64,000 bases of DNA. Origin: Schmidtea nova. Lineage: Eukaryota. The stretch spans positions 250,480,001 to 250,544,000 of the forward strand of contig CM097882.1 of the NCBI GenBank assembly GCA_044892505.1. Reading direction: 5' to 3'. The notes beneath the pieces are model-generated. The model saw only the letters and a program-made list of their open reading frames with translations, was not told the origin of the DNA and searched no databases. Both the position numbers and the translations under genes were made by a program. Positions 31,048 to 64,000 of this stretch are shown here, one piece after another; the stretch's first letter is position 1, and the number at the start of each line of letters is the position of its first letter.

Positions 31048-32338
31048 ATGTATTATAGTTGAATGATTTGACTTGTTTGTTTGTAGTATGTCTGAGTATT
31101 AGACGTAAGGTAAAACCTGATTCATTTGAGATTGTAGGCACTCTAATAACTGAATTAACCTTAGAGCAAAGGAAAGAGCGCGTTAAAAAGGGACCGAAAG
31201 AAATCCACAAACACCTTCTATCGGTAGTGGTGGACCCGTGAATAAACAAGGGAATAGTAGCCGCAAGGTTGCTCACCTGCCTTGTCATTTCACAACGTTG
31301 ACACAGCACCAACATGATGAGTAGTTAGGGATACATCATGGGTGTCAGCGGGGGAATGTTTTTATGTTGGCGAGATCACCCTAACGTATAAAATCTTCAT
31401 GATCTCAGTTGTCCAACAAACCAACACACCAGCAGTACTATATCATCTCAACAACACAAACATCGTCCATGTATTTATTTCCTCTACACAATCATACCAA
31501 AATACGTAATGTGTATGACCCAATCCATAAGATTAAGGGGAAAACATTCGTTATCAACTTGCCCTTTGATTTTTCGACCAAATTCAGACCAAATTCTGAT
31601 TGGTCCGATTGTAGTATAGAAATGTTTATTATATAATAACTTATTGATTTATTTGTTTATATTCAGGCACAAAATTCAATTCAATCTGTTTTCAGTATGA
31701 AACTTAGGTAACATTTATTATTATAATATTTTATTTATTATCATGTCGAAAAATTTTAGAATTAGAATTCCCTTTACTGGTAGAATTTCGATACTCAAAT
31801 ATTTCAACCTTGAGAGCCAAACAATTTTCCTCGAAAATCACACTAGCAATCAATCATGGGTATTATAAAAATAATCGTCAGTTCAAATTATAGGGCAAGT
31901 CTGAGCACAACTCGATTACAAATCAGAAAAACATCTCACTCGAGCTTCTGACACCAACTCAACTCAATTTCCCCGCTTTATTTGCTGTTCTCGTCCATTG
32001 GAATTTAATGAGCTTGTGTGAGCACATCATCCTACTTTCAATAATGATCCTAGTCAAAGAAAATGTATTGTGAAAACAAAACTTCTTGTTGATAGTGGAT
32101 CTACTAAAAAATTTTAATGCTATAATATAATGGTTTTAGTTTATTTATTTACACTTTCCTAACTATTATCTTTTTGTGTTAAATAAATTTTATTTAGATT
32201 CTAGTTTCCAAGAGTAATCTTAAAAAAATCTATACGTAATTTTCAAATGAAAAGACAGTATCTGGTTAATTTCATTTACTAAACCGATGGTTTTCCCACG
32301 TACTTTAATTATTGTAGTTACATATATATATATATATA

Positions 32339-32555
32339 TATTATCATAATTATCTTTTTTCACCTTTGATCTTTTTTTATTATTATTATCAATAATTCTC
32401 ATAATGACTATAGATCAAAATTTTTTTTTATAAACAATAACACAATATTTCGGCACAGCCTTTATACACACTTGATAAAGGCTGTGCCGAAATATTGTGT
32501 TATTGTTTATAAAAAAAAATTTTGATCTATAGTCATTATGAGAATTATTGATAAT

Positions 32556-32639
<84 letters not shown>

Positions 32640-33724
32640 CCTGCATAATAGAAAAAGGTCGAGATCCTCACATGCGTGTCTTGGAATTTTCGCAAAACCT
32701 CCCGATTCTGAAAGTCGGGACCTGATTGATCGTTTCTGGAACTTTTCGAGGGCTTCGCCTTTTATCCTTTTTATAATCGGTTTTGTAAACATTTTCAAAA
32801 ATTTCACTTTTGCAATAATTTCTCAAAATTTGCTAGCAAATTCTCTGATAATATTATTTTGATGGTGGTATTTATAGGATATTCTGTATGTTGTTTCCAT
32901 TGATGTATTAAACAAATTGTTCCAGAAGGAATTATCGATTCTTTCAAAATCAAATTTACCAATGTTACGCAAAACCAAATTAATACTTTTGCATTAAATT
33001 TTATTAAAACTTTATATAATTTATTTTTTATTGAAAATTTTACTTTTGAATTAAAGTTTTTCCTAATTTAGTTTAATTTGTTACATTTTTAACTAAAACA
33101 ACTTTCTTTCATATTTTCATGAATGTTTAAGATAAAAATCGAAATTTTCCCTCCAAAAATATTTAATTTGCAATTTTGTTACATAATTGATGTTTTTATG
33201 TTATCTGTGTTTTTCACGTATATACTTGATGCGCTTCTGTTTATTTTTAATTTTAAAGTGTTTTATTTAATTTTTTCGGTGTTTTGTGATTATTATGTTT
33301 TACTTGATGCTTTGGCTCATAGAACTTTAAATTTACTTATTGCGCGCTCTCTACGTGTTGTTTTCCCGTTTCATTTAAACAACTCTTAGTTTTTGCCCAA
33401 CAATATTAAAACATTTTAAAATTTTTGCCGAGGCCTTGACAACAGCACGGCAATCATAAACTGAATCTATAATTAATATTATTTTATATTATTTTCAATA
33501 ATTCCCGTAATGGTAAGATTATAGATCAAAATTTCTTTAAATAAGTACATAATATTTCGGAAGTCTTTGTCAAGTGTGTATTAATACACACTTGATAAAG
33601 ACTGTGCCGAAATATTGTGTTCTTATTTAAAGAAATTTTGATCTATAGTCTTACCATTATGGGAATTATTGATATTAATATTAAAAAAGATCAAAGGTGA
33701 AACAAAAATATAATTATGATAATA
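32339..33724. mobile_element. Non-autonomous element with ~220-bp inverted ends, each containing a long hairpin, next to (TA)n
   Basis: Left end TTATCATAATTATCTTTTTTCACCTTTGATC is mirrored at 33685-33724. Perfect 87-bp-arm hairpin at 32379-32561. Second hairpin at about 33490-33675. (TA)n at 32323-32340 and 32561-32638. Confidence 0.7.
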
Positions 33725-34480
33725 TTTTTTATATTAGGCTATAGAAATATTTGATAAATTTTAATTTACTTTTGGAGAAATAGAAAACCTCAGTAGCCCC
33801 CATCTTTATTTCATTGACGCATAAAATAATCTATATAGTATTATATATATGGGAATTTTAGATTTGCTTCTCAAAAAATTTTTATGCAACCTAACTGATT
33901 CGTTATAATATGCAATCTTAATTTACAATACTAATTATTGATTTTACGGTTTTAATTTTCGAGGAATTTGAAATCTGGAAAATTCTCAAAAACGAAAAAT
34001 CATTCATTTTTCTTTTTTTCAATTTAATTCGTAATTTATTGTATTATTGTTTGTGTGTAAATAAGTCTCCCTTTACTGTTCAGGTGCAGCAGACAGGATA
34101 TCATTCTCGCTAACTCTCATTAATATAAAATTCACAATTCAGATGGAGTTTACTTACACACGCAATCCGGTCTTCCGGTACCAACGGCGGTGCTCCAATT
34201 CTCATATGGAAGCTCAAGAATTCATTTCTTTCCCTTTCTCAGCTTAATCATAATTGATGTTTTATTACGACAATTAATTTATGAACTTTTTGTGAATAAA
34301 TATCGTTATAAACTTTCAATCAAGGCAAAGAGGAATTTCGAACTTTCATTTGATTCTCCGACAGTGGAATTAATTCATATTTTGGTTTTCTACTACATTT
34401 GTAAGTTTGTTTCCAGAAGATGGGATTATGCAAATTATAAAGTAAAATTTTTTATAATTTTTATAATAATAATAATAATC

Positions 34481-34925: not shown

Positions 34926-35664
34926 TTAGAATTTAGAATTTAAAAGAAAATTATATTTGGTAATTATATAAAAAATTCATGTTTTTAAGTACTTGTTTTA
35001 ATAATATTGTAAATGAAAAGGTTTTTTTAAAAATTTGCATGGTAATTGTAATTGGTTTGAATAGTATGGTTAAATGTGGAAGTTTTTGAAATTGGATTAG
35101 TACTTTTAGTTTTGTGATTATCTGTGGTGGTTAGATTTGAATTTTGCTTGTAATTGTTTTTTAAGGATAATAAAATTATAATTACTAATTATATACATAG
35201 ATTTATGATCAAATTTGCCTTATAAAATCTGACTTAAAGCTTTATAGGTAGGCAATTTGTGCTATACACTTGACTCAATGAGAGCCGCATCCAATTGTAT
35301 TAAAATGCGTGAATTAGAATGATGCGATTATTTGAATCTGGGGAATGAAAGGTACCCAAATACGATTTATGAGGTTTTATGAATTGTGATAGTGGTTATG
35401 ACTTGTGATTGTGAAACAAAGTGTGGGAAACACAGAATCGAACAAATAAATTGTCCTCAAATCGAATAGCTGATCTGAATCGATAAAATCAATATATTTA
35501 GACTGTTATTTACTAATGACGAAGGAAACGTTTTAAATAAATATCAACGAGTCAGAGATCGACTATTAATAAATTAAACAATGTCGATTTCCTGCGAAGG
35601 TACCCAGGCATAATAAATAGAGCAAATAACTGCACATCGTGACTGGTTCGGCGCTTCCAGCTCC

Positions 35665-36140
35665 TATTGCTTTCTTTATTTTCAGCTTGTTGTACCATCG
35701 TTACCATCTTTACGAGAATTATAATATTTGATGTTTCAGGTGGATAATGGATTTCATTCCACATCGTTTCAAACGTATCTAGAAACTCCTTAGAAACACT
35801 TCCGTTTGATGAACATAAAAATTTATGATGTATTGAAAAGGCTTTTTCAAGGCAATATTTACTGCAATATTTGGCACCAGACTTTTCACAATTACAAAAC
35901 GGTGATTTCAATGAGGAAATTATACAAAATTGTTTGTTAGGAACAACTAACGAACTATCTTCCGTTAACCGTTTTAAATTCTCATCAACACCCTCAAGAG
36001 GTTTCATACATTTTCGCATGCGCCGGTGCTATACCTTTTGTTCCAGGAATACTGAATCTGAACAAATAAAACTGAATCCTTTTGAATATCAGTTTCAGCT
36101 AAAAGCCCTCGTACGATTAACGGTCCAAAGAATTGTTGAG
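35665..36140 (-). pseudogene. SMYD5: SMYD5 N-terminal/MYND fragment inside the LTR-like unit (copy 1)
   Basis: RGLLAETDIQK...QYSWNKRY...CMKPLEGVDENLKRLT...CEKSGAKYCSKYCLEKAFSIHHKFLC...WNEIHYPPETSNIIILVKMVTMVQQA matches the SMYD5 hallmark W-x-x-I/V-HYPPET. Frameshifted. Confidence 0.88.
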
Positions 36141-40117: not shown

Positions 40118-40222
40118 TTCCAGGCACGCCCCACAATCTCTCACAGCGATCAAGCACCCAAATAATTATTTTAATTATTATTTAATTAATTTTAAAAATA
40201 TTTTAAGAGCGGGCGCGATCAT

Positions 40223-40350
40223 CTCGCTTTTACATTCTTGATTGTGTCACTTGATTCAACTTCCAGGGTAATAGTTTTAACTGATAAAGTTCTCACAAAC
40301 ATCTGTATACCACCTCTACATCGTAAACCCAATTGCAAAGTTGATTCCGT
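40223..40350 (-). pseudogene. Polyubiquitin junction fragment
   Basis: [41 protein letters not shown] versus [41 protein letters not shown]. Confidence 0.88.
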
Positions 40351-40399
40351 TTTATTTTCTTTCATTCGCGGACTATGCTCTTTTAAACCTGTACTTGCA

Positions 40400-40830
40400 T
40401 CACCACTTGGCATTGAAGAAAAACACAAACATTCCGCTACTTTAGCTTCATTTACACTGTCTTCATGAATACCCACTTTAATATTTTTAGTAACTTGCTC
40501 ATAAAACTTTTTATAATTAGCTTCGTATTCTATTACTCGTTCAAAAAGTTCTAAACCTTTTCTCCCTAATTCTTTTCTGATTACTTTCAAATTCATATTT
40601 TGTTGCAACATTTCCCGGCGGATATTCAATAGAAAATCTCCACTGACATAACCGGTCCACCTACTAACCTCTACACCTTTAAATATCAACTTATCTTTTT
40701 CAATACAAATTGCTTCGTAAGCAGGTGACACAATTTCATCTCTTTGTCCACTCGACACATCAAATGAACCCTGTCTACTATCAGCATTATCAAAATCTTT
40801 AGGAAAAGCCTGCTTCTCATCGCTCTCGTA
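40400..40830 (-). pseudogene. ORF-U (post-PBS ORF), 5'-deleted copy
   Basis: Near-identical to 43313-43690. Joined to the PBS remnant through a short tandem duplication and deletion. Confidence 0.7.
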
Positions 40831-40869
40831 ACTAATGGTTCGTAACCAATGGTTCGGCGCATCCAGCTC

Positions 40870-41345
40870 CTATTGCTTTCTTTATTTTCAGCTTGTTGTA
40901 CCATCGTTACCATCTTTACGAGAATAATAATATTTGATGTTTCAGGTGGATAATGGATTTCATTCCACATCGTTTCAAACGTATCTAGAAACTCCTTAGA
41001 AACACTTCCGTTTGATGAACATAAAAATTTATGATGTATTGAAAAGGCTTTTTCAAGGCAATATTTACTGCAATATTTGGCACCAGACTTTTCACAATTA
41101 CAAAACGGTGATTTCAATGAGGAAATTACACAAAATTGTTTGTTAGGAACAACTAACGAACTATCTTCCGTTAACCGTTTTAAATTCTCATCAACACCCT
41201 CAAGAGGTTTCATACATTTTCGCATGCGCCGGTGCTATACCTTTTGTTCCAGATATACTGAATCTGAACAAATAAAACTGAATCCTTTTGAATATCAGTT
41301 TCAGCTAAAAGCCCTCGTACGATTAACGGTCCAAAGAATTGTTGA
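40870..41345 (-). pseudogene. SMYD5: SMYD5 fragment (copy 2)
   Basis: Part of the ~885-bp block 41733-40850, which differs from 36533-35644 at about 7 positions by eye. Confidence 0.88.
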
Positions 41346-42726: not shown

Positions 42727-42977
42727 CGCTCTGTAATTATGAAAAGTTTGGTGCCAAATATTGCAGTAAATAAAAAAAGCCTTTTCAATACATCATAAAT
42801 GTGTATGTTCATCAAACGTAAGTGTTTCTAAGGAGTTTCTAGATACGTTTGAAACGATGTGGAATGAAATCCATTATCCACTTGAAACATCAAATATTAT
42901 GATTCTCGTAAAGATGGTAACGATGGTACAACAAGCTGAAAATAAAGAAAGCAATAGGAGCTGGATGCGCCGATCCA
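42727..42977 (+). pseudogene. SMYD5: Truncated LTR-like 3' end with a degenerate SMYD5 fragment (copy 3, opposite orientation)
   Basis: MWNEIHYPLETSNIMILVKMVTMVQQAENKES, ending GGAGCTGGATGCGCCGATCCA. Confidence 0.8.
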
Positions 42978-42978
42978 T

Positions 42979-42996
42979 TGGTAGCAGAGCGTGGTT
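42979..42996 (+). promoter_or_regulatory. Primer-binding site, initiator-Met tRNA type
   Basis: TGGTAGCAGAGCGTGGTT, 18 nt, 1 nt after ...CCA. Same pattern as animal iMet PBS (TGGTAGCAGAG...GGTT). Confidence 0.8.
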
Positions 42997-43096
42997 CCCT
43001 TCGGGGGGCCACGCACGGCGGGTAAGCTTTTTGATTGCTTATAGCGGTCACAGCGCCGCATTATATTCTAAAATGTTTAAAATTTGAAAATTAATA

Positions 43097-43790
43097 ATGA
43101 ATTTAATGGGGGGATTTAGTGCTGTAATGGGCCCCAGCGACCATCCCCTTCCCTTAAGCTCAGTTGGGTCTGAGAATGAAAATGGTTGGTATACTGAAAA
43201 TACTTATTTGAAAAAGGTTATTAAGCTTGATGGTAGCCGTAGTAATAAATCAAGCATGCTCTTTAGTGAGAAACTTAGGGATACGTATGATAATCCCACA
43301 AAGCTTGCATGGGGTTACGAGAGCTATAAGAGGCAGGCTTTTCCTAAAGATTTTGATAAAGATGATAGTAGACAGGGTTCATTTGATGTGTCGAGTGGAC
43401 AAAGAGATGAAATTGTGTCACCTGCTTACGAAGCAATTTGTATTGAAAAAGATAAGATGAGATTTAAAGTTGTAGAGGTTAGTAGGTGGACCGGTTATGT
43501 CAGTGAAGATTTTCTATTGAATATCATCCGGGAAATGTTGCAACAAAATATGAATTTGAAAGTAATCAGAAAAGAATTAGGGGGAAAAGGTTTAGAACTT
43601 TTTGAACGAGTAATAGAATACGAAGCTAATTATAAAAAGTTTTATGAGCAAGTTACTAAAAATATTAGTGGGTATTCATTGAAGAGCGAAATGAACATTT
43701 AGGGAGATTAGAGATAGACAAAAGCATTGAAAGCCAAGAGAGAGAAGTACAGCCAGAAAGAACAATTTAACTTTGGGATGTTGTTTATCT
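43097..43790 (+). CDS. ORF-U, uncharacterised ORF in the gag position after the PBS
   Basis: 201-aa ORF 43097-43702. Comparison with the 40400 copy suggests small indels near 43670 and a native end ...[35 protein letters not shown]. No Gag motifs recognised. Confidence 0.55.
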
Positions 43791-58134: not shown

Positions 58135-59075
58135 AGTAGGTAGATGTGTGGAGCCGGGAACAAAGACATTATGACTCATTGCGTGGGCGGAAAAAAAGAA
58201 CAAAGACCCCCTCACCCCCCGGGGGTAGAAATTTTTTTGATGAGTCATCGATGAGTCATCGATGAGTCATACTTTTTTGATGAGTCATCGACGAGTCATA
58301 CTTTTTTTTCAAATTTTTTTTTCGTGCCAAAAATTTTTTTCAAAATTTTTTTTGCGCCAAAAATTTTTTTTCAAAATTTTTTTTTCGCGCCAAAAATTTT
58401 ATTTTAAGTCAAATTTTTTTTAGACAATTTTTTTTAAGACAAAATTTTTCAAATTTTTTTTTTAAGTCAAATTTTTTTTAGACAAATTTATTTTTTTCGA
58501 CAAATATTTTTTTTACACCAATTTTTTTTTTACAAAAATTTTTTTTTTTTAAGACAAATTTTTTATTACACAAAATTAGAGTCATCAAAAATATTTGCAA
58601 ACTAAACAAAGACATTGTTGTATGTGTGCATGTTTAATTAATTAGTATTTGTCAAGTATGCAGCTTTTGCACATCAAAACCATCACAGAAGAGGTTCTGC
58701 TTCCAGGGTTCTGATCGCAATGTTCTGCTACTAATGTTGTTATTTATTCATTTAATTATTTCACAAATTATTATCTTTCAAACTAAACAAAGACATTGCA
58801 AGTTAACAAGGACTTTGCAACACGCGTGCAACATGAACAAAGACATTGCAATACACATGCAAACTAAACAAGGACTTTGCAACATGCATGCATGCAAACT
58901 AAACAAAGACATTGCAACACACATGCAACACTTTGCAACACATGTGCAAACTAAACAAGGACTTTGCAACACGCATGCAAACTAAACAAAGACATTGCAA
59001 CATGCATGCAAACTAAACAAAGACATTGCAACACACATGCAACACTTTGCAACACATGTGCAACATAAACAAAGA
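58135..59075 (+). repeat. Probable Polinton terminal/subterminal region with tandem repeats
   Basis: Starts AGTAGGTAG. GATGAGTCATC tandem units at 58240-58300, T-rich units, and a CAAACTAAACAAAGACATTGCAACAC...minisatellite at 58780-59075. Lies just past the 3' end of pPolB. Opposite TIR not in window. Confidence 0.5.
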
Positions 59076-59349: not shown

Positions 59350-59535
59350 ACCTTTGATCTTTTTTTATTATTATTATCAATAATTCTCATAATGACTATA
59401 GATCAAAATTTTTTTTTATATAAACAATAACACAAAATTTCGTGAAATACACACTTGATAAAGGCTGTGCCGAAATATTGTGTTATTGTTTATATAAAAA
59501 AAAATTTTGATCTATAGTCATTATGAGAATTATTG

Positions 59536-59560
<25 letters not shown>
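59350..59560 (+). repeat. Third copy of the hairpin end of the 32339-33724 family, followed by (AAT)n
   Basis: Same sequence as 32362-32561 with a short deletion in the left arm. Confidence 0.88.
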
Positions 59561-59576
<16 letters not shown>

Positions 59577-59606
59577 TATAACTACTTGTAATAATAATAT
59601 TAATAT

Positions 59607-59946: not shown

Positions 59947-60045
59947 CTTATAAAAAAAGTAAAAATAATAACTTATAAAAAATTAACAAAAAAATAATTC
60001 ATTAGTTTTAATTGATTGCGCAATTTATTACAATCAAAATGTATT

Positions 60046-60061
60046 GGCCCTAAAGAGGGCC
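60046..60061 (-). promoter_or_regulatory. Histone-type 3' stem-loop (distal)
   Basis: Minus strand AAT-GGCCCT-CTTT-AGGGCC-AATA: 6-bp stem and 4-nt loop. Confidence 0.7.
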
Positions 60062-60358
60062 ATTATTTCGTGCACATTCTGTTTTTTGGTTTCGGAATAT
60101 TTTCATCATTTGTTTCTGTTTATTTTCCTCATTTGTTTTGGATTATTTTTTCATCATTTGTTTCGGATTATTTTTTATTATTTGTTTCGGATTATTTTCT
60201 TCATCATTTGTTTCTGTTTATTTTCATCAGTTGTTTCGGATTATTTTCATCATTTGTTTCCTTTCATTATCAGTTTTCTTTTCGGTTTCTGTAATCTTTT
60301 TTTTTTTCTTTATCTGTAAGCTAAAATTTATTAATATTTGTTTACAATCATAAATTGT

Positions 60359-60374
60359 GGCCCTGAAGAGGGCC
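60359..60374 (-). promoter_or_regulatory. Histone-type 3' stem-loop (proximal to pPolB)
   Basis: Minus strand CAATC-GGCCCT-CTTC-AGGGCC-ACAA, with canonical flanks, 118 nt after the pPolB stop. Confidence 0.78.
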
Positions 60375-60492
60375 GATTGTGCATTCTCATATCTTTTTTT
60401 TTTCTTTTTTGGTTTTTTGAATTATTTTTTTTTGATTTTTTCTTTTCAATTTATCATTCTCGTCCTTGCCATCATCATCATCATTCTTGCCA

Positions 60493-60543
60493 TCATCCGA
60501 AATAATCCCGAGCCGTCGGGTCATAGAAATCGTAGGGGTCATC

Positions 60544-60575
<32 letters not shown>

Positions 60576-63500
60576 GAAGCTGTTGTTGAAGCTGTTGTTG
60601 TTGTTGTTGAAGCGGCTCTCGATCACCTACAAATATAGTGGTGTCACCCCCCATATAATGACCATACGCCAAACTTTTATTTTTTTCCACCCAGTTCCTC
60701 TTATCATCCCTACAAGATAAGGCCCTCTTATTACTTTTTATACTAAAGAGCTGATGGTTTTTGCTCGTAATGCGGAACTGGGGGACATTGTATATTTTAT
60801 CATTTAAAAAACAGTCAAGGTAAGACTGGTGTGTGAGACCTGCATCTTTCAAACAGATCCCCTTCGCTTTCATGCAGGCCTCGTCTCCCATCAGGCTATA
60901 ACATTTAGGTCTTAAGAAAACCCACTCATCATACAGTAGACCCTTGTTCTCGTAATTAGAGGTGTCCAAAAGCCTATCGCGAATCATTGCAGCTAAAAGA
61001 GTGTCCAAAGGCAGATTTTTGATTTCTAAGAAGAAGGAATCAGTATCCCCAGCAACGATGTTAATTTCGCAGTTGAAGTCGTTACGATATTTTTGTAACT
61101 CTTCATACTGCAGCTGGTACATACGAAGTTTGGATAAATCCAGTACGGTTTGTCCGATGTAGCTGGGTCTATCCAAACATACTGATTCCTTCTGAAGCAA
61201 TACGGAGATGAGGTCACTGTCGATTTTGTTAGTTTTTTTAAATTTAGGTTTAGATGTGTAAGTCAGCAGTTTTTGTGCCGAGTTACACAATCTTAAATTG
61301 ATTCGTTTTTTTAAGTTCTCTACGGTTTTGCCGTAGAGACTATTATTTAATAATTTATAAAAATTCTTATCGAGCTTATTTGTTGATGCAGCTCGTAAGT
61401 CTGTGTTAATTTTAATATAATTAAAAAATATTTTACTTTGCGAAAATTTAATTGCGCGATAAATGTGTGTTACTTTAACACCAATTTTAATAAATAGTTG
61501 CAGAAGCCGCCAATGAAGAACATAATTCTTCTTTGGAAGATGCGTTAGCAACAGCTTCTCAACCTTGGATCCCGGTGCACACATCTTTTCAGCGGCAACT
61601 GGAAGATCATCCAGTTTGTCGTGAATCGATGCCGGAATTTCCAAATCCACTTCTATGGTGTAACCATAATGAAGTGTATCGAGATTTTCCGATGTGCACT
61701 CACAAACGATTTGATTTAATAATTGGTCATCAGTGACCCACTCAAAATTACCACATGGCAAGGGTTGGCTTAAGGCCCACCCATATAAATTATTTATGTC
61801 AATATATAATAGTGCGGTATCCGGGCTCGTCTTGACATAATGTTTATTGACAAACGTTAGTCCGCCGCGAATACCGCCCTCGAAAAAGTTATACATCTCC
61901 ATATCGGTGAGGAGCTCGATAGGAGAGTCAAGAGTTAATAAAGCGGAACTCCACGACATGCCGGGAATTCCGAGAAAATTTAAAGGCTCAAGCCTGTTAT
62001 GGTTAATTTATTTAATTCGAAATTGCTGAAAATAGTCAGCTAACAAAAACACAAAAACACACAAAAACCATCATGTAATCGTACAGTGATGTACATGAGG
62101 TTTCTTGCCATATTTTATGGGCAGCAGCATACTCGACAGCAGTTATATCTTTCCACTTGGGTGGTAAACACAATGTAGATTTTAAAACCTCTAAAGAAGT
62201 GGCAGCGTCGTAAGGAAATATGCCCTTGGCCGTGACTATAGTACCGCGAAATTCTGAGTTTGTTAAAGGTAACGAAGTAAGGGTTTTTACCGCGTTATTT
62301 AGAGACTCACTCACAAACTGATACGAGTCTATAAATTTTACAGTGAGGCTATCGATGTACGCGAAAAGACTTAAAAACTTTTCGCTGGTCAAGGGAATAC
62401 AACTTATATTCCACGTGTTATATTTCGAAAGGCCGTATTTTAATATATGGTGTAAATCGTAACCCTTCAAGTTGTGAAAGATAACGGGCAAAGAGTGTCT
62501 TATTGGCCTGGATTTGTTGCACTCTGAGCAGGCTGCTCCAATATAAAGACCGGTGAAATGGTCGTGATCCCTAACAGGTACCACTAAAAGCTTTTTACAT
62601 AAATAGCAATTAGTGCTATTGTCAAATTCTCGCTGTTGGGTCGCAGTGATCGTCATGCGCTTTTTGTAATTTTTATAGTAATAGGGTGTCACTATATACC
62701 GACTGATTGACTCAATTTCTCTTAGGAATTGGTCAACACAGTCTAACCCTACAAAAGACTTGTAAATTCTCACCCCAGTAAAGTTGTTAATCAGAAGGAG
62801 ACCTGCGGCAATAGGAAGATGTTTTTGGTGGTGAACAGTGTCTTTGGGTAATATTGCCTCGAAATCAGCATATATTACGAAAGGAGGAGTTACTGTTTTC
62901 TTCCAATCAGTAAACTCTAAAAATTTATTTTTGGGTAATGTGTAGAGGGTGGTACCCAACTGATTTTTTGTACAAAGACCCTTATGACGATTAAAGGCTT
63001 CGTCGTTCCTAAAGCCATTCAAGCAACGAGTGCACCATTTGTTGCAAATCCTAACTGGGGTGATGGTACTATTCCGGCAATTCAAAAAACGATTAAGGTC
63101 AGTAATCGCGAGATAATGAAAATTATCTTTTTTCTCCAAAAGAAGTAAATTTATGGGAATAGCCCCGACTACTTTACTGCGATAAACTATGTCGATAAAA
63201 GGGTGTTTAAGGACGACATTATCATCATTATCGCTATCGCTTACATCAATTTGGGCCTTTTCGTCATATGTAAGAACATTAATGCTGTAGCCACTGTTTT
63301 GCCTCTCGAATTTCTTAATGTTGACTAATTTCATGGGCATGTCATTTGGATCAAATACAAGTTGGGAAAGGTCTTAAGAAGAAACCCTATGTCTGTATTG
63401 GCGTTCAATACTATCGTATTTAACTATAGCTAAAAAGCTATATAAAAAGCAATAGGTGTCGTTATTGTTGACATTAACGAGGCAACTTAAACTTTTTAAA

Positions 63501-63904
63501 CTATTTGGAGTTTCGATATAACTGCTGCCGCTCAACCTACTAATTTCAGAAAATTTAGTGACTAAAAAACTAATATATTCGATTTTAGAGATTGTCCAAT
63601 TACTCCCCTTTTCGTTAATCTGGACAATCTTTTCATTTAAACTAGTGATACCTTCCTCAATAAAGATATCACTCCACTCTCTGGCAGAATTTGAGATGAC
63701 AAAAGATTGTAATTGATCATCTTTCTCAAATTCTACCTTGAGACAAAATTGAATTTTAACTGATTTTAATTTAATAATATATGATTTTAATTTCTCTATC
63801 AATATATCCGGTACAGAGACTGTTTTTAATAATAAATTAGATACGTCCATTTTTATAATAAAATGGGTATCGTTCAAGTCGGAAGTAACTTCAACAATAC
63901 CCAT
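60493..63904 (-). pseudogene. Polinton/Maverick protein-primed DNA polymerase B, disrupted
   Basis: GSNW, GSSYIETP, YADFE, endonuclease-VII-like CYLC...RDHDH...CSEC, FHNLKGYD, DINNLYG, KLLNNSLYGK, GDTDS, LRPKCYS. Stop at 63374-63376, frameshift near 62060, stop near 62020, KxKDE segment deleted, polyQ tail. Confidence 0.95.
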
Positions 63905-64000
63905 TCCAATTTGATTATTATTATTATTTATAATATTAACATAATCGTCAAATTCATCATCATTGACGGTTATGTCATCGGTAGATATAATATCGATATT

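Follow-up and report, generated by a model that had tools for sequence, protein, structure and literature searches.

A clade of Maverick/Polinton elements in the planarian Schmidtea nova, which we name family A, ends its gene for a protein-primed DNA polymerase B (pPolB) with a hairpin cassette that, in its sequence features, matches the 3' ends of the host's own histone genes. The balance tips modestly toward the reading that the pPolB transcript is cut at the first hairpin (SL1) by the host histone machinery, which would give a message tied to S phase, with a poly(A) signal farther downstream as a backup.

The starting point was one element copy in a 64-kb window (the whole stretch of DNA that was analyzed). 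A sequence-only reading of this window had reported a histone-type hairpin with an ACAA flank 118 nt past the pPolB stop and a second hairpin about 310 nt farther on. The first is present at 60359-60374, and the second (SL2) lies 313 nt beyond it (Table 1). The same reading had placed a common motif behind both hairpins and had seen no histone open reading frame (ORF) nearby; TGATTGT indeed starts 9 nt (SL1) and 10 nt (SL2) past the stems, and none of the neighboring ORFs encodes a histone. Both hairpins have a 6-bp stem, a 4-nt loop, a G2-C15 pair, and a U at loop position 3, and the ACAA behind SL1 stands where histone mRNAs are cleaved. They are the sole matches to the histone pattern GGYYCTYTTNAGRRCC in the window, two against 0.05 expected, a number reached in 0 of 100 shuffles. 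The Rfam Histone3 model (RF00032) recognizes both, at 31.5 bits for SL1 (E = 5e-7) and 24.9 bits for SL2 (E = 1.5e-4) on an 801-nt stretch, but both scores fall below the gathering score of 34. An alternative-frame tail rich in Asp and Lys, also described earlier, exists in the window sequence but is unconserved. A coding spacer is rejected, the stop-to-SL1 lengths falling in all three frames (27, 15, and 14 of 56 copies). The window pPolB itself is defective, with two frame breaks and one in-frame loss in which ~20 codons are missing at 60950/60951 relative to most copies, so the finding concerns family A more than this copy. The window element has its right end at 58135; on the far side, beyond the window, another Maverick-type end interrupts it.

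Table 1. Hairpins, their neighboring motifs, and the parts of the pPolB gene and element end in the window
Feature	Position	Strand	Remark
SL1, histone-type hairpin GGCCCTCTTCAGGGCC	60359-60374	- (pPolB strand)	6-bp stem, 4-nt loop
ACAA directly after SL1 stem	60355-60358	-	Flank of SL1
SL2, second histone-type stem-loop GGCCCTCTTTAGGGCC	60046-60061	-	No ACA flank
GAGAATG upstream of SL1	60382-60388	-	Common to host histone 3' UTRs (GNGAA)
TGATTGT, downstream element of SL1	60344-60350	-	HDE-like, 8 nt past stem
TGATTGT, downstream element of SL2	60030-60036	-	Spacing 7-10 nt across copies
A-rich low-complexity spacer between SL1 and SL2	60062-60343	-	Length varies
TTGCGCAA palindrome and ATTAAA hexamer	60007-60023	-	Conserved; predicted backup poly(A) signal
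Outer end of terminal inverted repeat, pPolB side (AGTAGGTAG...)	58135-58152	+	Full copies have the same end, with 6-bp target duplications
pPolB C-terminal piece, stop at 60493-60495	60493-62007	-	PF03175, E = 4e-16
Upstream pPolB pieces, frame-broken near 62007-62060 and 63374	62036-64000	-	Gene extends beyond window

Four other family-A copies, read whole, are ~18 kb long, with terminal inverted repeats (TIRs) of the form AGTAG...CTACT and 6-bp target duplications. The features that define Mavericks, a long TIR starting with AG and ending with CT, a 6-bp duplication, and a length of 15 to 20 kb, were thus found in 4 of 4 copies, and the window copy shows one TIR end. The elements encode protein-primed PolB (PF03175), an rve integrase (PF00665), and an A32-type ATPase (PF04665), and a block of same-strand ORFs in the neighboring genome ends in pPolB. 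ORFs of suitable size and order are candidates for capsid and protease genes, presumably major and minor capsid and an adenovirus-type protease, labels that we assign by that size and order; a 347-amino-acid ORF has no Pfam match, and a Pfam search with the first 194 residues of a 406-amino-acid ORF gave none. Both stem-loops occur once per element, between the stop codon of pPolB and the right TIR, in all four full copies, and no stem-loop was found in these copies behind other element genes or at the other end. A location inside the terminal repeat is rejected, since both hairpins lie outside the TIRs in all four. SL1, SL2, and the poly(A) hexamer sit 1.2 to 2.0 kb inside the element end, past the last gene of the strand. 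Family-A pPolB has ~1,300 to 1,450 amino acids, and the gene has its own promoter with conserved CRE, CCAAT, and TATA motifs. It is predicted to be spliced: in 5 of 5 family-A copies the large exon keeps a putative phase-1 acceptor 56 nt ahead of its first Met, and short predicted phase-1 exons lie upstream of that exon in some copies (e.g., loci L281/L278). For the window element, this promoter and exon region falls past the right edge of the window. The Mavericks of this genome also have a gene with a TBP domain (PF00352, E = 1e-13), divergently placed beside the ATPase (L280:5222-5686, minus strand), and one lies likewise beside family B, described below. One full family-A copy (L283-L285) sits inside a host histone gene cluster, ~4.5 kb from an H2A gene.

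How widespread is the cassette? Among 59 copies picked on pPolB protein only, with hairpins ignored, 56 have both hairpins: 28 of 29 A1 copies other than the window's and 28 of 30 A3 copies (subfamilies are defined below). One of the 28 hairpin-bearing A1 copies has lost 1 nt in SL1, and in the three copies without both hairpins the family homology breaks off at or before SL1. Searched for the combined pattern of stem-loop and downstream element, the genome yields 6,709 exact matches, against none with the reversed control. The first 30 of these, which belong to 17 elements by position, all have a family-A pPolB upstream on the same strand. With two matches per element, this suggests roughly 3,000 or more family-A element ends. 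In the Rfam search of the genome with RF00032, 31 of 60 matches pass the gathering score; the best 30 of the 60 comprise 27 behind a family-A pPolB, 1 behind histone H3, and 2 in other Maverick-like settings, namely the truncated capsid-like gene of an internally deleted element (L018) and a degraded Maverick-like copy. At another locus (L007), the SL1 cassette stands behind an in-frame fusion of the pPolB C terminus with an unrelated ORF.

SL1 follows the stop at 94 to 168 nt in the 56 copies and at 48 nt in one A2 copy, and SL2 follows SL1 at 164 to 358 nt in the 56. SL2 lacks the ACA flank in every copy (0/56) but retains a downstream motif at +7 to +10 in 56 of 56, behind which come the TTGCGCAA palindrome (55/56) and, 32 to 35 nt past SL2, either AATAAA or ATTAAA (56/56), the variant switching by subfamily (28 and 28). 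In many copies, such hexamers are also present in the A-rich UTR and in the spacer.

Comparison with the species' own histone genes, which the sequence-only reading had called for, reveals that SL1 bears their signature in both sequence and spacing. A stem-loop stands 24 to 40 nt after the stop in 17 of 30 host histone-fold loci, the others being variants, fragments, or pseudogenes. Each of these 17 ends shows GNGAA ahead of the stem-loop, ACA behind the stem, and TG(A/G)(T/C)(T/C)G at exactly +8. In the family-A copies, GNGAA and ACA at SL1 are each present in 55 of 56, and the downstream motif is present in 55 and at exactly +8 in 54. The SL1 16-mer has no exact counterpart among the 17 host ends, a sample to which H4 and H1 do not belong. 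The host has a single SLBP gene (PF15247, E = 1e-18).

The gene that carries the cassette is another matter. Replication-dependent histone genes are intronless, and introns favor polyadenylation; pPolB has predicted introns, a different promoter, and no histone ORF. A host histone promoter motif, TACCGCAACGTAA, whose core GCAACGTA is in 8 of 13 promoters, was sought in the four full elements and found in 0 of 4. A promoter motif of the form TAC(C/T)GCAACGTAA is common to host histone genes with a stem-loop (seen upstream of L044, L045, L047, L049, L050, L057, L064, L065, and L036) and absent from four histone genes without one. The stop-to-SL1 distance of 94 to 168 nt likewise falls outside the histone range of 25 to 60 nt. 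Judged by its long UTR, predicted introns, and other promoter, the pPolB mRNA does not belong to the histone class. A 25- to 60-nt distance from stop to loop is called critical for regulated stability in a recent account (bioRxiv 10.64898/2026.10.14.759114).

The downstream element is U-rich in the host and of identical type in SL1 and the host histones; the same account reports metazoan downstream elements as being of a purine-rich type (bioRxiv 10.64898/2026.10.14.759114). The element common to SL1 and host histones predicts the 5' end of the host U7, which should include ACAAUCA. The Rfam U7 model (RF00066) gave two weak hits in the host genome, neither with the expected 5' end and none over the cutoff. 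A pattern of antisense sequence plus Sm site had 32 matches, of which 30 were inspected and none had a convincing 3' hairpin, and a promoter-anchored pattern had 11 matches versus 12 in the control. A weak lead in three copies (L323-L325, ~1565) consists of the snRNA-promoter-like ATGCAAAA followed by ACAATCAA and the Sm-like ATTTGTTT; its 3' hairpin is poor, its frequency is at control level, and Rfam does not call it U7. Planarian histone processing depends on Integrator, and U7 is not listed in the available sections of the paper that reports this (PMC6312358).

Is the cassette maintained by selection? In a quick tree of the 52 elements with an unbroken C-terminal match (copies with broken matches were left out), the copies with the stem-loop group into a single clade (SH-aLRT 98) with three subfamilies, A1, A2, and A3. 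Over the C-terminal 190 codons, A1 and A3 are 83% identical in protein and 43% identical at four-fold sites (~42 sites a pair). Their UTR identity is 0.61 versus 0.55 when shuffled, and that of the spacer is 0.51 versus 0.48. In 50 A1-A3 pairs, for which the A3 copies had first been found by hairpin, the SL1 16-mer is 100% identical and the 47-nt SL1 cassette 94% identical; among copies chosen on pPolB (28 A1 by 28 A3), SL1 is 98.9% identical and its flanks are 87 to 98% identical. In the same 28-by-28 comparison, a 50-nt island with an identity of 0.94 to 0.99 is bordered by stretches at 0.64 and 0.47. An SL1 identity of 99 to 100% against 43% at four-fold sites suggests that SL1 is likely under selection. 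Four-fold sites are the better yardstick here, since the spacers are of low complexity and the elements recombine: between one A1 and one A3 copy, the 5' two-thirds are 86 to 88% identical and the pPolB block 74%. A short conversion tract behind the SL1 similarity is possible. In all three subfamilies, the SL1 cassette retains one variant and the SL2 cassette another. SL2 variants keep six pairs, with U-A, U-G, or C-G as pair 3, and the commonest (34/56, U-G) folds fully on the sense strand only (-8.6 versus -4.6 kcal/mol), which points to RNA; SL1 folds equally well on both strands. Two of the findings that the sequence-only reading had named as counting against it are absence of the motif from other Polinton copies and origin from an inserted histone pseudogene end. 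Both fail, since the motif is present family-wide and its conservation is far above that of synonymous sites.

Family B is a sister Maverick whose pPolB is 65% identical to that of family A. None of 30 family-B copies has the stem-loop, and all 30 have AATAAA right after the pPolB stop, in the place of family A's stem-loop. The earlier attribution of the motif to "Polinton" therefore applies to one Maverick clade, family A, but not to Polintons in general. Among the 150 family-B copies listed, the pPolB C termini are 96 to 100% identical; this family is spreading as near-identical copies (99%) without the cassette, meaning that the cassette is unnecessary for Maverick spread in this host. Family B adjoins the window element (L033:6059-9832, plus strand, and L158-L187) and is very young. 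Metagenomic contigs gave 50 loci related to pPolB, of which 31 reach the C terminus and 26 have at least 160 nt downstream; a same-strand stem-loop follows in 0 of these 26. Viral contigs matched the stem-loop pattern at nine loci, and in no case did a pPolB-like frame precede the hairpin; a search of viral contigs for pPolB relatives gave 0 of 22 candidates. The cassette's absence from family B and the 26 metagenomic relatives suggests that it was likely gained in family A. When Rfam was run on 16 of the metagenome relatives, L231 alone matched, on the opposite strand. This contig has a perfect histone-type stem-loop (L231:4112-4158, minus strand; RF00032, 28.9 bits), ~2 kb past a distant, intron-split pPolB (32% identity) on the opposite strand and ~600 nt after an acidic non-histone ORF, possibly an independent case.

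Taken as the favored reading, cleavage by the histone machinery would have the following course. A host histone 3' UTR end would have been captured in the family-A ancestor and then duplicated. SLBP would bind SL1 in the pPolB transcript, and the histone machinery would cleave the RNA after the ACA, leaving an SLBP-bound pPolB message without a poly(A) tail. SL2 and the A(A/T)TAAA hexamer would provide a backup end before the terminal repeat. Production and translation of the message would fall mainly in S phase, as expected of SLBP-dependent pPolB expression. Element replication would then take place where dNTPs are at hand and, in a planarian host, in the stem cells through which the genome is inherited. 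The mimicry of histone processing proposed from the window sequence thus gains from a cassette that matches host histone ends in sequence and spacing throughout the family but sits uneasily with the long 3' UTR and the predicted splicing. These two features, the lack of a histone promoter motif, the U-rich type of the downstream element, the searches that gave no convincing U7, the hexamers within the UTR and spacer, and the spread of family B without the cassette all count against cleavage at SL1 as the best reading. Polintons of Schmidtea mediterranea are piRNA targets whose silencing is lifted as cells differentiate (PMC8532177). The histone RNAs of planarians that end in a stem-loop lack a poly(A) tail and are under the control of SMEDWI-1, and stem-loop RNAs of S. 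mediterranea feed piRNA production (PMC10954484). Desilencing in differentiating cells and the entry of stem-loop RNAs into piRNAs would be a cost to the element, which again speaks against this reading.

Another explanation, which we regard as unlikely, grants cutting by the histone machinery but gives the cassettes the main role of a fail-safe terminator before the TIR, with cell cycle timing incidental. They would halt transcripts that read on from the same-strand genes before these enter the TIR, where double-stranded RNA or triggers of piRNAs might arise. The series of three ends (SL1, SL2, and the hexamer) after the strand's last gene fits such a terminator, and the long UTR, predicted introns, and missing promoter motif fit processing without full histone regulation. 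Against it, family B ends the same gene by plain AATAAA and spreads. Moreover, stem-loop-ended histone messages need SLBP for translation, and transcripts cut at SL1 would still have that need.

It is less probable still that the hairpins lie within a polyadenylated 3' UTR whose real end comes after SL2, binding SLBP alone (for translation, localization, or decay) or acting as a decoy. The A(A/T)TAAA hexamer in all 56 copies, which switches between the two commonest forms by subfamily, the predicted splicing, and the SL2 stem kept without an ACA flank would all agree with this. SL1, however, keeps both ACA and the downstream element at exactly +8 in 54 of 56 copies, features that matter for cleavage, not for SLBP binding alone. 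Cleavage at SL1 with S-phase coupling, termination before the TIR, and binding of SLBP alone all require that the cassette work in RNA as a signal to the histone machinery.

The remaining explanations do without such a signal. That the cassette is a passive fragment of a histone 3' end, kept similar by recent recombination among subfamilies or conversion from histone genes, is very improbable and largely refuted: in its favor, the elements are mosaics and their fast-evolving spacers a weak neutral yardstick, but identity falls on both sides of the 50-nt island, SL1 and SL2 each retain their own variant in three subfamilies, the changes in SL2 keep its pairs, and the exact SL1 16-mer is missing from the sampled host histone ends. 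Least credible are palindromes serving as DNA sites for replication or packaging, or as virophage/mimivirus-type polyadenylation hairpins, a view to which the nearness of the element terminus and the equal folding of SL1 on either strand lend something but which is opposed by their place outside the TIRs, their absence from the other end, other genes, and family B, flanks equal to the host histone RNA signal, and an SL2 U-G pair that works on sense RNA only.

How does the cassette compare with known systems? It has the stem, loop, G2-C15 pair, loop U3, ACA, and downstream element of the replication-dependent histone mRNA 3' end (RF00032; SLBP, U7 snRNP, and CPSF73), yet it sits in tandem on a mobile element's DNA polymerase gene, 94 to 168 nt past the stop, and that gene is predicted to be spliced and lacks the histone promoter motif. 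Some histone genes, vertebrate H2A.X among them, have a poly(A) signal behind their stem-loop; as there, a stem-loop followed by a hexamer would allow two kinds of 3' end, but the family-A cassette is non-histone, element-borne, and has two stem-loops. Family A resembles other Mavericks/Polintons (adintovirus-like) in its ~18-kb length, TIRs, 6-bp duplication, pPolB, rve integrase, and A32-type ATPase, and differs from them in ending pPolB with histone-type cassettes, which family B and the 26 metagenomic relatives do not. Mimiviruses and virophages follow a hairpin rule in which long hairpins of no fixed sequence define polyadenylation in most genes. They share with family A hairpin-defined 3' ends among Polinton relatives, whereas in family A one gene has a fixed 16-mer equal to the host histone signal. 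HERV1/LTR12 is also a mobile element bearing a motif of the histone 3'-end pathway, being repressed by U7 through HDE-like motifs (PMC11417402); there, a U7-matching motif alone is reported and the host represses transcription, whereas in family A the whole stem-loop cassette lies at a gene's 3' end and is conserved by the element. SLBP pathway genes were not found in large DNA viruses, according to the account cited above for the stop-to-loop distance (bioRxiv 10.64898/2026.10.14.759114). A literature search, with most subscription papers outside its scope, returned nothing on histone stem-loops carried by Polintons/Mavericks or by other transposons.

To our knowledge, replication-dependent histone mRNAs are the sole animal mRNAs that end in a stem-loop instead of a poly(A) tail. 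We see an even chance that family-A pPolB would be the first animal class of non-histone mRNAs matured by the SLBP/U7 pathway, with a replicase gated to S-phase stem cells and element copies far outnumbering histone genes as carriers of SLBP sites. If so, a mobile element with the whole signal under selection would break the histone-only rule, a DNA transposon or virus would have a new way of sensing the cell cycle, and family-A pPolB would be undercounted in poly(A)-selected transcriptome sequencing. Family B, which ends the same gene with AATAAA, offers a natural control in the same genome, and family-A pPolB would be a long, probably spliced natural substrate for probing what the histone cleavage machinery needs.

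Two further kinds of repeat were seen in the window. A short repeat with internal inverted symmetry, likely a MITE, occurs at 32323-32565, 33468-33736, and 59350-59606 and at many other loci. Repeated Hsp90-, ubiquitin-, and zinc-finger-like fragments at 35552-36028, 40219-41234, and 42770-43702 are likely captured gene pieces within a repeat.
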